Positions 43,552 to 57,432 of a stretch of 64,000 bases of DNA are shown piece after piece. The DNA is from Escherichia phage A5-4. A model generated the notes under the pieces. The model was not told the DNA's origin. It worked only from the letters and a program-made list of their open reading frames with translations, and did not search any database. The position numbers and the translations under genes were made by a program. The stretch is from the sequence record OP744025; one strand, given 5' to 3'. The first letter of the stretch is position 1. Each line of letters opens with the position of its first letter.

Positions 43552-43748
43552 AGTATCGCCCTTTCTTCTGTTGTGCGCCCTGGTTGGCGCGGTAAAAAGA
43601 CTATAAATGATCTTCCTTTATATGGCAAGGAAAAAGAAAATTAAAAAAGATTGAAAATAATGTTGACGTGGTGAATCTGGTAGCGTAGTATTCATCTCAT
43701 CGAACGGCGACATGCCAACAAGTAAACAAATAAAAGGGCAACAACAAA

Positions 43749-43934
43749 ATGAATAAAAGAATTACAAACGTAAATCCTGGCGAACGTTTCCAACATGAGG
43801 GGCATTTGCACACTGTAGTAAGCAACAAAGAGCATACTGTAAGAGTAAATAGAAATATCTTGCAACTTCGCGATCGTTTTGGTATCGTACAGACTTACAC
43901 TTTCGAAGCAAATAAAACAGTTAAAACTTTCTGA
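43749..43934 (+). CDS. hypothetical small protein
   Basis: 61 aa; promoter TTGACG-N17-TAGTAT upstream. Confidence 0.45.
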   Translation: MNKRITNVNPGERFQHEGHLHTVVSNKEHTVRVNRNILQLRDRFGIVQTYTFEANKTVKTF

Positions 43935-43945
43935 GGATTTTTAAA

Positions 43946-44281
43946 ATGGCACTAGTCACTAAGTATTTCATTGAAGGCCAGCAAGCGGCGCAACAAGGTT
44001 ACAGCCGTGTTACTCGTTACAAGAAAGAAGAAAACAAGATTGAATTTTTCAAGGGTTACGATAGTGTAAACCGTGATGCAATGGTCCTACGCTTCGAATC
44101 CGATCCAGTGGGCAAGCCTGTTACCTCTTACCAGGCATCACCGCAGATTGTTTATGTTGGTACTGTTAAAGAATGTAACGACAAGTTAATCACTTTGAAG
44201 CAGGCCGATCGTGCGGGTTACTTTGTTGTTTACACTGCTGACGGTAAGCCTTACCAGTACGAAAGCAAATATTTTAAATAA
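43946..44281 (+). CDS. hypothetical protein
   Basis: 111 aa; GAGGA RBS. Confidence 0.5.
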   Translation: MALVTKYFIEGQQAAQQGYSRVTRYKKEENKIEFFKGYDSVNRDAMVLRFESDPVGKPVTSYQASPQIVYVGTVKECNDKLITLKQADRAGYFVVYTADGKPYQYESKYFK

Positions 44282-44362
44282 AAAGTATTGACAGAAAGAA
44301 AGAAGTAAATTAAATTATACCACGTAACGCCGCAATCGTGCGGCAATAAAAACTGATAGGAA

Positions 44363-44584
44363 TTGAACAAAATGGCTAAAATCATCATTAAAAAATCCCG
44401 TGTATCTTCTGTTGCTCGCGTCGAAATGGTAAACACTATGCCAGGTTACCGGACTCGCGAGGAAGCCCGAAGCGTTGCAAAACAGATTAAAGCCCGTGGC
44501 TTAACTGTAAGTGCACCGACCAAAACACAAGAAGGATGGAAGGTATCTATTAAATCCGGTACACTGTCAATCAATAAACACTAA
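44363..44584 (+). CDS. hypothetical small basic protein
   Basis: 73 aa; promoter (TTGACA at 44287) and stem-loop upstream. Confidence 0.5.
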   Translation: MNKMAKIIIKKSRVSSVARVEMVNTMPGYRTREEARSVAKQIKARGLTVSAPTKTQEGWKVSIKSGTLSINKH

Positions 44585-44801
44585 TAGCCAAAACATTAAC
44601 GGGGCAACTTTGCCCTCATTAAATAACATTATCCAGGAGTATTAACATGACTAGCCAAAACACTAACATTGAAAAAATCAACATTACTAAAGAGCGTAAA
44701 GCATGGAATGAAACATTAAATCTCAAAGGTAAGAAGCTGAATAAAACTAAACGCGATCGCAGTACAAAGCGGGCCTTTTGTGAATTTACAGCGGATCAAG
44801 A

Positions 44802-45101
44802 GTGATGATTAAAGTTATTGCACTTACTGCTTTATTGTGTATACCATTTTTGGCGCACGGTACTAAGTTTTACGGTGCTAACTTGATAGATTGTAAAGCT
44901 CATATGCTGGACCATGAAACAGGCAACAAATTTCTTAAGCCTTTCCAGATCAATCCGGCGGCATTTAGTGACGGTGTTTTGTATCAGGAAGGTAAAGCCA
45001 GTACGCTGATAATGCATTACGATCCGGCAACAAAGAAAGGTAGTCTATCAATCCAGGTTGGAGAGGTGGAAGAGTTTTCCGGTGAAATAGTCTGTAATTA
45101 A
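44802..45101 (+). CDS. hypothetical secreted protein
   Basis: 99 aa; N-terminal signal-peptide-like MMIKVIALTALLCIPFLAHG. Confidence 0.5.
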   Translation: MMIKVIALTALLCIPFLAHGTKFYGANLIDCKAHMLDHETGNKFLKPFQINPAAFSDGVLYQEGKASTLIMHYDPATKKGSLSIQVGEVEEFSGEIVCN

Positions 45102-45109
45102 TATCTTGA

Positions 45110-45136
45110 GGCCCGTCATTGTACGGGCCTTTTTCT
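45110..45136 (+). terminator. rho-independent terminator
   Basis: Hairpin ggcccg-tcattgta-cgggcc followed by ttttt. Confidence 0.6.
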
Positions 45137-45290
45137 TTTATGAAAATAATTTTGAAAATGTTGTTGACAGTAAAATCGATTCTGTTAAGATGTATCACAT
45201 CAGGACGGGGAACGAAGTAAACACTCCCCGTTAAGTAGTCCAGGAGTAAGACATACGAAAAACTCCCCTGATAAAAAGATTTAAAAGTGG

Positions 45291-45318
45291 TTGACACAAA
45301 ATTAAAAACTGTTAAGAT
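45291..45318 (+). promoter_or_regulatory. promoter plus stem-loop cassette
   Basis: TTGACA (45291-45296), 16-nt spacer, TAAGAT (45313-45318); GC hairpin ggcggcaatagtgccgcc at 45330-45347; then RBS and ATG 45368. Confidence 0.6.
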
Positions 45319-45367
45319 GTATCACATACGGCGGCAATAGTGCCGCCTCCAACAAAGAGAAATTATC

Positions 45368-55418: not shown

Positions 55419-55446
55419 GGGCTTGACTTGTTCAGCCCTTTTTTGC
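55419..55446 (+). terminator. rho-independent terminator
   Basis: Hairpin gggcttgacttgttcagccc followed by ttttttg. Confidence 0.6.
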
Positions 55447-55619
55447 TATTCTTATCAAACGGGCGGCACCTGGGAACAGGGGGGAGGTAATCACTGGACG
55501 ACTCCGCTATATAGTGATAGTAAATAGCTATCAATAATCTCCAAAAATAAAATAAAACCTATCGAGTCTTTACAATTCTTTCTATTGACACAACAACCGC
55601 ATTACAGTATTATTTATCT

Positions 55620-55880
55620 CGTAGGGCAGCGAAGCAGTGATGTAAAGTAGTTACTCTATGATGTAAGTTCTGAGAAGTCGAATCCGATAAAGTATCAGAA
55701 AGTTTCTAAGTTTTCGAATCGTCCAGATGAAAAAGGCTGGCAAGTGTTGAGAAAGGGCACGTTGAGTAAGTCCTGAACAGGGGCGCTCCTAGACACCTTC
55801 TACTGAGATTGCGATCGAAGTGTTAAACTGTGAGAAACGATAAAGAGTACCAGGAAAGAAAGAAGTAAAAGAAGTGAAAA
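55620..55880 (+). ncRNA. candidate promoter-driven non-coding transcript
   Basis: Promoter TTGACA (55585-55590) + TATTAT (55608-55613) is followed by about 260 nt with no ORF longer than a few codons, up to the next promoter (TTGACA 55886). Every other cassette in the array sits directly in front of an ORF. Confidence 0.25.
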
Positions 55881-55960
55881 AGATTGTTGACACGAAGGTA
55901 AGTTTTGTACTATTATCTATCTTGTAGGGCAAACTTCAAGAACATTAAAAAGGGTACAAA

Positions 55961-56236
55961 ATGTTACAGCTTAACGCCAAATTAGACAAAGAAATCACTG
56001 AGTTTTGGGATATGGTAGTGGCTACAGATGTTGACGGTGTAGCAAGTCCTTACCTCAATAACATTGAGTATCATAATGTTGCAGCTATGAATGCAGAATA
56101 CGCAGAAGAAGGCGGCGCGGATAAGTTTGCTAAAAGCAACGGTTTCACTGATGCTAACGACATGATGCAATCAGTTTTGTGGCAAGCCCAGGAAGATTTT
56201 GAAGAAAAAACTCTTGAATTCGCCAGACGTTCATAA
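55961..56236 (+). CDS. hypothetical acidic protein
   Basis: 91 aa ORF after promoter TTGACA 55886. Confidence 0.5.
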   Translation: MLQLNAKLDKEITEFWDMVVATDVDGVASPYLNNIEYHNVAAMNAEYAEEGGADKFAKSNGFTDANDMMQSVLWQAQEDFEEKTLEFARRS

Positions 56237-56291
56237 TAGAATAATCAAACGGGCCGAAAGGCCCACTAATTGACCTAACAGGATTAACATC

Positions 56292-56561
56292 ATGAATCGC
56301 ATCGACCAGCTTAAAGTAGTTCAGCATATGGCTTACCGTATCCTTGAAGTTCAGAAAGGGAGCAAAAAAGAAGTATGTGAGAAGGCTTATAAGGTATTCA
56401 GCCACAAAGCTGATGATTGGAAGTTGCAGAAAGTAAAAAAGGCCGATATCCTGGGATACCTTGAAGAAGAGATCCGCATTGCAGACCAAAAACAGATTCG
56501 TCGTGATGAAGCAGAACATAACCAGGCCTGGCAAGAATGGTTTAAAGGCTACACTAAGTAA
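56292..56561 (+). CDS. hypothetical protein
   Basis: 89 aa ORF. Confidence 0.5.
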   Translation: MNRIDQLKVVQHMAYRILEVQKGSKKEVCEKAYKVFSHKADDWKLQKVKKADILGYLEEEIRIADQKQIRRDEAEHNQAWQEWFKGYTK

Positions 56562-56694
56562 AATTGAAAACGGGGGGCCATATGGTCCCTTTGTAAATAT
56601 TCCATTAATTTACAATTCTCCCTATTGACAAGAAAGTCAATTTTGCAGTATAGTTATATCTCTAGCAGCAAACAACAAAACAAAGGACAACGAC

Positions 56695-57114
56695 ATGAAC
56701 ATCAAATCAACTAATCCGGCTTACTCTTTCGATAACGCTTTTTGTCACGGTAGCGCCGCCAAAGGTTTTGAAATTGATGGTAAACTGGTTATCGTCAATG
56801 TTGATGGGGAAGAGGTTGCAGTTTATCCAGTGGCAGACGTTAAAAGCCGTTTACAATGTCGCATGGACGTTAATGAATACCGCCTTGATCCGGTTCGTGT
56901 CGTTGCCCTGGTCCTGGAAGAAGAAATTAAAGCAATGCAGCACGGTAATAAGTTTATTGGTGATGCACAGGACAACATGAAAGTAAGCCGCCACAAAGTT
57001 AATGAAGCACTGAAAGATTTTGGCTTTAAAGACCTGATTATCAAACGTGATGAAAAATTCCGCTTTCGTAATGATCTGGCAAATCGCTACTATGAAATCT
57101 ATGAAGCACTTTAA
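56695..57114 (+). CDS. hypothetical protein
   Basis: 139 aa ORF; promoter TTGACA at about 56626 upstream. Confidence 0.5.
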   Translation: MNIKSTNPAYSFDNAFCHGSAAKGFEIDGKLVIVNVDGEEVAVYPVADVKSRLQCRMDVNEYRLDPVRVVALVLEEEIKAMQHGNKFIGDAQDNMKVSRHKVNEALKDFGFKDLIIKRDEKFRFRNDLANRYYEIYEAL

Positions 57115-57130
57115 GAGGTAAGACAACAAG

Positions 57131-57153
57131 GGGCCGCAATAGCGGCCTTTTCT
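57131..57153 (+). terminator. rho-independent terminator
   Basis: Hairpin ggccgcaatagcggcc followed by ttttct; loop caatag is the same as in the promoter-associated hairpins. Confidence 0.55.
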
Positions 57154-57234
57154 ATTGACACCTGCTAACCATTCCTTTAATATGCATCTTGTAGGGCAAG
57201 CAATAACGCAAGCCCACAAATAGGACAAACCATC

Positions 57235-57432
57235 ATGACCATCGCTAATCAACTGATCGCCGTATTGAATGAAGCCAAATCTAATGAAATCGATGTACAG
57301 ATCAAAGAATTGCCCAATGGCCTGATCGGTTGCACTTGCACCTGCTTCGGAAGTGACTACACAGAGGTAAGCTCTCTAGAATCTCTCATTCGTCACTTGA
57401 AATCAATAGTTGAAGATTGGAGAATCATCTAA
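57235..57432 (+). CDS. hypothetical small Cys-containing protein
   Basis: 65 aa; GCTCTCFGSDY; last gene of the rightward array. Confidence 0.45.
   Translation: MTIANQLIAVLNEAKSNEIDVQIKELPNGLIGCTCTCFGSDYTEVSSLESLIRHLKSIVEDWRII

Follow-up and report, generated by a model that had tools for sequence, protein, structure and literature searches.

The small-gene array of Escherichia phage A5-4 is built from a recurring cassette in which a near-consensus sigma-70 promoter is followed, at a nearly constant distance, by a GC-rich hairpin. The array lies on the + strand of a 64,000-nucleotide (nt) stretch of the phage genome (sequence record OP744025), which we refer to as the window and number from its first letter. 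We believe, with a probability of about 0.55, that the cassette is a self-contained early expression module with a hairpin close to the 5′ end of its RNA, and that it doubles as a recombination site. The array was delimited from the list of open reading frames (ORFs) together with a check of start codons and Shine-Dalgarno (SD) sequences:

43749-57432, + strand: array g01-g43, 43 co-oriented ORFs of 30-139 amino acids (aa).

An SD-like purine tract precedes the ATG of each of the 43 ORFs. An initial annotation, made from the letters of the window, had counted about 40 small genes here, which agrees with this number, and had given most of them a promoter and a GC stem-loop of their own.

A consensus scan of 42-59 kilobases (kb) returned 81 promoter-like sites, compared with 47.5 ± 6.2 in shuffled sequences; of the strong ones (≥10 of 12 matches), about 27 were + strand sites and 3 were - strand sites. 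Inspection of each intergenic region yielded 31 sigma-70-like promoters on the + strand, mostly with 10-11.5 of 12 matches and with A-rich tracts upstream, and 29 of the 43 genes have such a promoter directly upstream. A promoter was scored as carrying a hairpin when the 34 nt beginning 4 nt after its -10 hexamer folded at ≤ -8 kcal/mol. This was the case for 18 of the 31 promoters, compared with 6.7% of all 34-nt segments in the region (binomial P~6e-14). Two borderline cassettes, at 45164 (long loop) and 52677 (bulge), bring the number to 20; the stability of the 18-20 hairpins is -8 to -18 kcal/mol. The recurring cassette of the initial annotation is thus real, and its hairpin does begin closely after the -10 hexamer. 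The count of at least 25 was too high, the number being 18 strictly and 20 with the borderline cases. The full cassette was found for 20 of the 43 genes, and it is the promoter by itself that most genes possess. The AAAAGT motif placed upstream of the promoter occurs at just ~9 of the 31. The hairpin described as frequent is present in its exact form, GGCGGCAATAGYGCCGCC, three times, its loop caatag being one among many. At least 10 different stem sequences are used: GCCGCA, GGCGGCA, GCGGGAA, GGGGAGAA, GGCGGGG, GGGGGAA, AAGCGGGAA, GGGGCG, GGGCGGCA and GGGCG.

Relatives for comparison came from a megablast search of a phage collection with positions 43,650-57,240 as query. The region matched 291 related records. 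The closest was Escherichia phage A7_1, with 98.5% identity over 100% of the query, followed by A73, UPEC06, vB_EcoM-LTH01 (LTH01) and W70, all unclassified Vequintavirinae of 137-145 kb; Phapecoctavirus and Justusliebigvirus-type phages have just 12-16% of the region in common with it. By these matches the window phage is an rV5-like myovirus (Vequintavirinae), not a T7-like phage. Phapecoctavirus tuntematon (tuntematon below) belongs to another subfamily, Stephanstirmvirinae. Of the 43 array genes, 43 were found in A7_1, 37 in A73, 38 in UPEC06, 35 in LTH01, 22 in W70, 15 in tuntematon and 8 in rV5. The cassettes are as follows, with the gene served and the promoter written as -35 hexamer, spacer length and -10 hexamer.

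44288-44344, + strand: cassette of g03, TTGACA-17-TAAATT, hairpin GCCGCAatcgTGCGGC (44329-44344).
45164-45232, + strand: orphan cassette, TTGACA-16-TAAGAT, long-loop hairpin; no ORF before the next cassette; breakpoint at 45223.
45291-45347, + strand: cassette of g06, TTGACA-16-TAAGAT, hairpin GGCGGCAatagTGCCGCC.
45968-46029, + strand: cassette of g08, TTGCAA-16-TATAAT, hairpin GCGGGAAtagTTCCCGC.
46285-46347, + strand: cassette of g09, TTGCAA-16-TATAAT, hairpin GGGGAGAAatgaTTCTCCCC.
46502-46558, + strand: cassette of g10, TTGACA-16-TAAACT, hairpin GGCGGCaatagcGCCGCC.
47445-47502, + strand: cassette of g13, TTGACA-17-TAAATT, hairpin GGCGGGGaatggCCCCGCT.
47871-47930, + strand: cassette of g14, TTGACT-17-TAAGAT, hairpin GGGGGAAacatcTTCCCCC.
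49565-49622, + strand: cassette of g20, TTGACT-17-TAAATT, hairpin GGCGGGGaatggCCCCGCT.
50025-50085, + strand: cassette of g21, TTGACA-16-TAAACT, hairpin AAGCGGGAAcacTTCCCGCTT; compensatory A-U to G-C in the LTH01 orthologue.
50338-50397, + strand: cassette of g22, TTGCAA-16-TATAAT, hairpin GGCGGGGAGtgtTTCCCCGCC.
51611-51663, + strand: cassette of g27 (30-aa membrane peptide), TTGCAA-17-TATAGT, weak hairpin GGGCgagatgGCCC.
52329-52384, + strand: cassette of g30, TTGACA-17-TAGTAT, hairpin GGGGCGacaagCGCCCC; breakpoint at 52326.
52677-52733, + strand: cassette of g31, TTGACA-16-TAAAGT, bulged hairpin of -7.8 kcal/mol; left edge (52728) of a block shared with tuntematon.
52894-52964, + strand: cassette of g32 (34-aa peptide), TTGACA-16-TAGAAT, hairpin GGGCG...CGCCC with a large internal loop.
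53484-53538, + strand: cassette of g34, TTGACA-16-CAAGAT, hairpin GGGGCGataaaCGCCCC; right edge (53489) of that tuntematon block.
54112-54170, + strand: cassette of g36, TTGACG-17-TATAGT, hairpin GGGCGGCAatagTGCCGCTC; site of the A73 crossover with cassette 54367.
54367-54425, + strand: cassette of g37, TTGACA-16-TAATAT, hairpin GGGCGGCAatgtTGCCGCTC.
54866-54917, + strand: cassette of g38, TTGACA-16-TAATAT, hairpin GGGCGgcaaCGCCC, chimeric relative to A73, UPEC06 and LTH01.
57155-57219, + strand: cassette of g43, TTGACA-17-TAATAT, bulged hairpin TTGTAGGGC...GCCCACAA.

The spacing between promoter and hairpin is fixed. Of 82 cassettes, 67 have a hairpin that begins 10-12 nt past the -10 hexamer. 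The value in rV5 is 10-11 nt, although the sequence in between is unrelated there, which suggests that the spacing itself is under selection. Transcription by E. coli RNA polymerase usually begins ~7 nt past the -10 hexamer, and with such a start the predicted transcript would have 3-5 unpaired nt before the stem. Between the end of the hairpin and the ATG lie 14-29 nt of A/G-rich, unstructured leader.

What is conserved in the hairpin is pairing rather than sequence. Six phages contain 43 distinct hairpin sequences. In a model-based alignment, one fixed register pairs in 75% of cells, and covariation in this alignment, which was fitted to the model, is 0.324, compared with 0.161 ± 0.017 in shuffles (0 of 500 as high), and lies above every slid register; five of eight pairs have changed on both sides. 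A compensatory swap is seen where AAGCGGGAA..TTCCCGCTT in the window is AGGCGGGAA..TTCCCGCCT in the LTH01 orthologue (A-U to G-C), the outer pair of the GGCGGGG family is G.U, G-C or A-U depending on the phage, and one orthologous hairpin has lost an entire base pair. Loops vary freely, with more than 20 different sequences and no invariant base. Internal G.U and A.C pairs number 11 and 5, a weak asymmetry of non-independent cases that leans to a + strand RNA.

The cassette is restricted to small-gene arrays. A motif scan of the full genome, as the initial annotation had proposed, was run on A7_1 (144,828 base pairs (bp)) and gave 41 promoter-plus-hairpin matches. Good matches were concentrated in the array: 19-20 lay within its 13 kb, on the + strand, and the remainder were scattered, of low quality and mostly with chance-like hairpins. 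A covariance model of the -10 hexamer plus hairpin, applied to both strands of 258 kb, returned 88 matches, each of them a + strand site within the small-gene array of the window phage, A73, UPEC06, LTH01, W70 or tuntematon; it found no match in A7_1 at 1-50 kb or 100-145 kb, nor in the rest of the window. In tuntematon there are ~21 cassettes of the same layout with near-identical hairpins, e.g. GGGCGGCAATGGTGCCGCTC, and rV5 has 4-5. An exact cassette 24-mer was found in three IMG/VR contigs only, of 97-153 kb. The rV5 paper listed 33 promoters, each cut a few bases past the -10 hexamer, and tabulated 20 terminators separately; the searchable literature yielded no description of the cassette in rV5-like phages.

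A separate observation concerns the - strand of A7_1 at 120-140 kb (L008), where 21 strong sigma-70-like promoters lie within 20 kb, none with a downstream hairpin. The hairpin is therefore a trait of the small-gene array and not of early promoters generally.

Chance can hardly account for the hairpins. As by-products they would be GC-rich palindromes hitch-hiking in duplicated intergenic DNA, and many cassettes are indeed evident copies of each other; cassettes 47445 and 49565 are 87% identical across 90 nt. However, the hairpins are conserved in two subfamilies with compensatory changes, they are enriched after the array promoters at the P value given above, and they are missing at other promoters of the genome.

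It is doubtful that the hairpin is a binding site for a phage or host factor, such as a boxB-like antitermination site, a repressor or RNase target, or a tag that spares the RNA from decay. Its size is boxB-like (stem of 5-9 bp, A-rich loop of 3-6 nt), the hairpin sequences GGGCGGCAATRGTGCCGC and GCGGGAATAGTTCCCGC recur in two subfamilies, and the basic proteins g04 and g17 are encoded in the array. The diversity of the loops (at least 20 sequences with no invariant base), however, argues against a single sequence-specific binder. In the cassette alignment there is no boxA-like partner, the recurrence of the two sequences can be explained by copying between cassettes, and the candidate proteins have no recognisable RNA-binding domain. 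The cassettes share with nut boxB and HK022 put a small promoter-proximal hairpin in early transcripts. They differ in having no boxA, conserved loop or N-like protein, and in occurring as ~20 copies, each before a single small gene, whereas the known sites occur once per early operon.

The initial annotation had likened the cassettes to the promoter-early stem-loops (PeSLs) of RB49/phi1, PST/T4 and nt-1/KVP40 (Arbiol 2010, PMC2839356; Comeau 2014, PMC4122927). The RB49/phi1 stem-loop occupies the space between the -35 and -10 hexamers or overlaps the -10, that of PST/nt-1 immediately precedes the promoter, and these stem-loops have been shown or argued to terminate upstream transcription (PMC2839356, PMC4122927). 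The likeness holds for composition (near-consensus sigma-70 promoter, AT-rich upstream tract, GC stem-loop, SD and start codon), for the setting of repeats between small ORFan genes in a hyperplastic region, and for the indels and replacements among close relatives, which break at the cassettes with crossovers in or beside the stem-loop. It fails for the position of the stem-loop, which here is downstream of the -10 hexamer, in the cassette's own predicted transcript and without a U-run, whereas the PeSL stem-loop is a terminator outside the transcript. PeSL geometry is found here in two cassettes only (48380 and 51130), and the lineage is Vequintavirinae/Stephanstirmvirinae rather than T4-like. 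A defining PeSL feature is thus missing, and the cassette should not be classed as a PeSL.

Termination or attenuation of transcription from the upstream module, as in true PeSLs, is accordingly an unlikely role for the hairpins. In its favor, the RB49 PeSL stem-loop cloned alone lowered lacZ as strongly as rrnB T1 (PMC2839356), promoter-less hairpins lie shortly past stop codons in the array, the two cassettes just mentioned have the RB49 geometry, and the array has few canonical terminators, so other insulation might be needed. The hairpins that do resemble terminators are the following.

45108-45141, + strand: intrinsic-terminator-like hairpin and T-run, after g05.
48902-48935, + strand: intrinsic-terminator-like hairpin and T-rich tail, after g17.
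55417-55446, + strand: terminator-like hairpin AAGGGCT...AGCCCTT, then TTTTT, after g39.
57128-57153, + strand: terminator-like hairpin GGGGCCGCAATAGCGGCC, then TTTT, after g42; direct repeat of the 57440 hairpin.
57440-57459, + strand: hairpin GGGGCCGCAATAGTGGCCC, after g43; UPEC06 and LTH01 lack the g43 module enclosed by this hairpin and its repeat.

A terminator scan of the + strand flagged 45108 and 48902 only. The two terminator hairpins at 57131 and 57441 (GGCCGCAATAGYGGCC) are related to the thrice-repeated cassette hairpin GGCGGCAATAGYGCCGCC. The true terminators at 45108, 48902, 55417 and 57128 have 5-7 T, compared with a mean of 1.45 (0-4) in the 8 nt past the cassette hairpins. The cassette hairpins share with intrinsic terminators a GC-rich stem of 5-9 bp and a loop of 3-6 nt; they differ in the missing U-run and in their placement just past a promoter. 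Eighteen to 20 of them lie 3′ of their own -10 hexamer, and their spacing is fixed to this hexamer, not to the upstream stop codon. Because the hairpin would be inside its own transcript, an efficient terminator would abort that transcript at about +25. For the cassette hairpins themselves we rejected the terminator reading on geometry and the missing U-run.

The arrangement we favor is that of an expression module, which consists, in order, of an A-rich tract, a near-consensus sigma-70 promoter, a GC hairpin, a leader with the ribosome-binding site and an ORF. Host RNA polymerase, still unmodified, would use the promoter as soon as infection begins. The hairpin, with 6-9 bp and 10-12 nt past the -10 hexamer, would begin at about +3 to +6 of the transcript, and the A/G-rich leader described above then leads into an ORF of 30-139 aa. 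Once in RNA, the hairpin would keep RppH and 5′-end-dependent RNase E away from the triphosphate end. Such 5′-terminal stem-loops stabilise mRNA in the E. coli ompA 5′ untranslated region, the T7 phi10 leader and the Bacillus phage SP82 stabiliser, a design that blocks attack by both enzymes. By analogy, the 5′-proximal hairpin of the cassette probably protects its mRNA. The cassettes resemble these stabilisers in having a hairpin a few nt from the (here predicted) 5′ end and, after it, an unstructured leader with the ribosome-binding site, and differ in being used serially, at ~20 separate promoters of one phage region. The hairpin may also insulate the ribosome-binding site from the upstream context, so that a module would be expressed equally wherever it lands, from its own promoter or by read-through. 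Finally, a cassette of 60-90 nt, with ~20 repeats and further copies in another subfamily, provides portable homology through which modules are inserted, deleted, replaced and reordered by crossovers inside the hairpin or promoter. Of this reading, the anatomy, the confinement to the array, the constancy of pairing and spacing and the part played in recombination are observed, and the action of the hairpin in RNA is inferred.

Comparison with relatives bears on this last point. Breakpoints were defined as the ends of colinear BLAST blocks between the window and A73, UPEC06, LTH01, W70 and tuntematon. Those at cassette elements are 45223/45276, 45963, 46862, 47107, 47437, 50353, 52326, 52928, 53489/53531, 54171, 54387, 54904, 57150 and 57434, together with 52728 from the tuntematon comparison; two are off the cassettes, at 53091 (a 12-nt gene junction) and 56994 (within g42). 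Thus 17 of 19 breakpoints lie ≤10 nt from cassette elements, which with this tolerance make up 14% of the region (P~4e-13). By a stricter test, 14 of 15 intergenic breakpoints fall in promoter-bearing intergenic regions compared with 69% expected (P=0.03). Judged from these mapped junctions, the shared cassette sequence is also a site of recombination.

Three single-module indels (g36, A73_7 and g43) have their junction inside hairpins. A73 is without g36, and there the promoter and hairpin loop of cassette 54112 are joined to the g37 leader, a layout that places the crossover within the common right arm TGCCGCTCA. The window is without a gene found in A73, UPEC06 and LTH01 and has instead a chimeric hairpin, GGGCGGCAA joined to CGCCCC, whose parts correspond to the two hairpins flanking that gene in A73. 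UPEC06 and LTH01 are without the entire g43 module; their junction is in the GGGGCCGCAATAGYGGCC hairpin, copies of which flank g43 in the window. The order of g31 and g32 is reversed in UPEC06. The orphan cassette at 45164, which is followed by the next cassette 127 nt on and is conserved in A73 and W70, is comparable to the 'half PeSLs' of T4-type phages; the stretch 45164-45290 is probably the scar or remnant of a lost module. Exchange between subfamilies is seen in one block.

52728-53489, + strand: g31-g33 block; left edge in a cassette hairpin, right edge in a cassette -35 hexamer.

Proteins of this block are 95-97% identical to those of tuntematon and its DNA 90-92%, compared with 77-82% nucleotide identity in the remainder of the array and 74-91% amino acid identity of g31-g33 to close relatives. 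On these identities the block is a recent exchange between subfamilies at cassette elements. The idea of regulatory cassettes doubling as shuffling sites was already proposed for PeSLs. What the array shows that is new is a PeSL-like modular system outside the T4 group, with a leader hairpin predicted to be transcribed, consistent geometry and inter-subfamily exchange.

Crossovers inside hairpins can also be taken to mean that the hairpins act in DNA only, as cruciform or attC-like sites or simply as the longest common homology, with no role in RNA. The junctions of RB49 mini-circles lie at the PeSL loop (PMC2839356), and the terminator-type hairpins at 57131 and 57441 also flank an indel. We regard a purely DNA role as very improbable. 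The distance from the -10 hexamer is constant even where the intervening sequence differs, the pairing passes through G.U intermediates, which are non-neutral for a DNA cruciform, all cassettes share a single strand and the orientation of the genes, and no integrase-type recombinase is among the A7_1 product names (272 features, mostly unnamed, with no recombinase domain search run). The cassettes resemble integron attC sites in that small single-gene modules are bounded by imperfect hairpins and gained or lost there. They differ in that most modules here have their own promoter, the hairpins of 14-25 nt are far shorter and lack the R/L box pattern, and the junctions are consistent with short-homology recombination. 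There is a slim chance that the hairpins are structure-specific sites of a phage enzyme, giving integron-like exchange in strictly lytic phages of at least two subfamilies (Vequintavirinae and Stephanstirmvirinae). The junctions inside hairpins, the one chimeric hairpin and the cross-subfamily block are compatible with it, and short-homology recombination explains them too.

Several points weigh against the expression-module reading as a whole. The junction-level preference for promoter-bearing intergenic regions reaches only P=0.03, the covariation alignment was fitted to the model, and the G.U/A.C asymmetry is slight. The cassettes may owe part of their fixed spacing to common descent. Where the hairpin lies in RNA is a prediction, as no transcription start, transcriptome or half-life data for rV5-like phages were found in the searchable literature. 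Some intergenic GC hairpins have no promoter, namely those before g04, g07, g41 and g42 and, in relatives, at the 52326 junction; the hairpin may therefore work as a 3′ barrier or on RNA that is processed or arises by read-through, and not solely at primary 5′ ends. One of these promoter-less hairpins is:

45639-45657, + strand: promoter-less intergenic hairpin GGCGGGAttagTTCCCGCC, before g07.

Conversely, 11 of the 31 array promoters have no leader hairpin, two of them (48380 and 51130) having a hairpin that overlaps the -10 hexamer instead. Together with the strong promoters elsewhere that lack a hairpin, they indicate that early promoter function needs none generally.

43663-43691, + strand: first array promoter, g01-g02, TTGACG-17-TAGTAT, weak 3-bp hairpin only.
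46821-46849, + strand: promoter of g11 without leader hairpin, TTGACT-17-CATAAT, extended -10; paralogous to promoter 47114.
47114-47142, + strand: promoter of g12 without leader hairpin, TTGACA-17-CATAAT.
48380-48418, + strand: promoter of g16, TTGACT-17-TAGTAT, hairpin TTGCCCCT...AGGGGCAA across the -10 (RB49-PeSL-like geometry).
49185-49213, + strand: weaker promoter of g19, TTGCAT-17-TACATT, no GC hairpin.
50602-50630, + strand: promoter of g23, TTGACG-17-TAATCT, no hairpin.
51130-51166, + strand: promoter of g25, TTGACG-17-TATAAT, hairpin TGCCGT...ACGGCA across the -10 (RB49-PeSL-like geometry).
52017-52044, + strand: promoter of g29, TTTACA-16-TACAAT, 3-bp hairpin only.
55585-55613, + strand: consensus promoter of a predicted ~260-nt non-coding transcript, TTGACA-17-TATTAT, 11/12 matches.
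55887-55916, + strand: promoter of g40, TTGACA-18-TATTAT, no GC hairpin.
56625-56654, + strand: promoter of g42, TTGACA-18-TATAGT, no hairpin.

The promoter at 55585 lies in a conserved non-coding part of the array.

55408-55960, + strand: ORF-less gap of 553 nt, with an 88-nt core at 55714-55801.

Positions 55,620-55,819 are 96-99% invariant among four phages, compared with 75-95% in neighbouring 100-nt bins. The 88-nt core is 85-92% identical to unannotated intergenic DNA of unrelated coliphages, namely Rtp and PH1062 (Drexlerviridae), ZL19, BUCT-XGG-1, Seuratvirus SA80RD, SLUR75 and WildeMaa. In the three regions inspected (Rtp, SA80RD and PH1062) the element is upstream of small genes and co-oriented with them. 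Compensatory changes in the core (CCAG/CTGG to CCGG/CCGG and CCTG/CAGG to CTCG/GAG) suggest that it may form a two-hairpin RNA; the stability of the 267-nt predicted transcript is not unusual (z=+1.4). A search of 55380-55980 against Rfam gave no family, the only match being a spurious snoRNA at E<1. A search of IMG/VR for additional copies of the core gave Rtp only, and a lone metagenome match was limited to a 22-mer. W70 is without the element, which is therefore dispensable. We consider the 88-nt element a candidate new phage non-coding RNA, either a cis-acting leader RNA or a small RNA. Two other explanations of the non-coding stretch were rejected. Mimicry of the host was one, the stretch having no match in 5,426 E. 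coli genomes. The other was a set of ToxI-like antitoxin repeats such as the pseudo-ToxI of the rV5-like phage phiTE (PMC3475682); the stretch has one 17-nt repeat at a 36-nt spacing and no Rfam ToxI match, and this explanation is unsupported.

All array genes are annotated as 'hypothetical protein' in A7_1, A73, UPEC06, LTH01 and W70. The initial annotation had seen no recognisable domains in their products, which is nearly right: 38 PHROG matches were all unnamed, and searches of PADLOC and NCBIfam with all 43 proteins gave no match. Over the 43 proteins, Pfam gave only DUF7249 (g06 and g12), DUF7170 (one gene) and the T7 gene 1.1 family (g04).

44647-44805, + strand: g04, 52 aa, Pfam Phage_1_1 (T7 gene 1.1 family), E=8e-9, above cut-off.
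45368-45619, + strand: g06, 83 aa, DUF7249; paralogue of g12 (47186-47425).

The paralogues g06 and g12 have diverged to 70-76% nucleotide identity and lie 1.8 kb apart within the array. A PDB sequence search with g42, the most conserved gene, gave no match. Small membrane peptides are encoded by g25, g27 and g32, a signal-peptide-like N-terminus is present in g05, and g04 and g17 are very basic small proteins. From position and promoter type, the array proteins are plausible candidates for early host-takeover or anti-defence functions.

W70 has lost 6.6 kb of the array (50353 to 56994), from g22 to most of g42. We considered this deletion as a cassette-mediated event and rejected it as such: its joint is a 5-nt microhomology that fuses g21 to the end of g42 in a single ORF (L005 15290-15410). 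On E. coli K-12, half of the array can therefore be dispensed with.

The initial annotation had set the array beside a T7-type replication module. This stands in so far as genes for a family A DNA polymerase, a DnaB-like helicase and a PIF1-type helicase lie 5′ of the array on the opposite strand, and the rV5 polymerase carries a T7-like annotation; the phage itself is rV5-like. The polymerase gene of the window (12196-14972, - strand) is divided into ORFs of 629, 157 and 91 aa, whereas A7_1 has a single 884-aa gene; a frameshift, a sequencing error or a genuine interruption could be the cause. A likeness to T7 was also noted in the cassettes, where the stretch from -10 hexamer to hairpin, TATCACATAGGGCGG (at 45313-45335, 53506-53527 and 54135-54156, among others), is similar to the T7 class III core CACTATAGGGAGA. 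It is one base short, and no RNA polymerase is among the A7_1 product names, in a sparse annotation for which no polymerase domain search was made; its ORFs of >800 aa are named tail fibres, membrane protein or DNA polymerase. On these two grounds a functional T7-type promoter was rejected, and we take the likeness as coincidence or an initial-transcribed-sequence preference.

At the other end, ~1.9 kb of repeat-rich, non-coding DNA (57440-59330) separates the end of the + strand array from converging - strand genes. A gap is present at the equivalent place in rV5 (~2.6 kb, a 'non-coding' box on the genome map) and in tuntematon (~1.6 kb). This stretch may hold an origin, a packaging site or a genome end. 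No tRNAs were found, and a search of the whole window against Rfam gave no match at the gathering threshold.

Arrays of tiny early ORFan genes are a store of phage functions for host takeover and anti-defence, and how they are expressed and renewed is poorly understood. The cassette offers a simple sequence marker with which such arrays can be found in ~290 related phage genomes, and the ~43 genes of the A5-4 array are individually promoter-tagged candidates that can be screened for toxicity and anti-defence activity. The cassette also offers a testable design rule for early expression that is strong and insulated: a promoter, a 5′ hairpin at +3 to +6 and an A-rich leader. For the evolution of these phages, it provides a concrete mechanism, with mapped junctions, for gene exchange among phage subfamilies.

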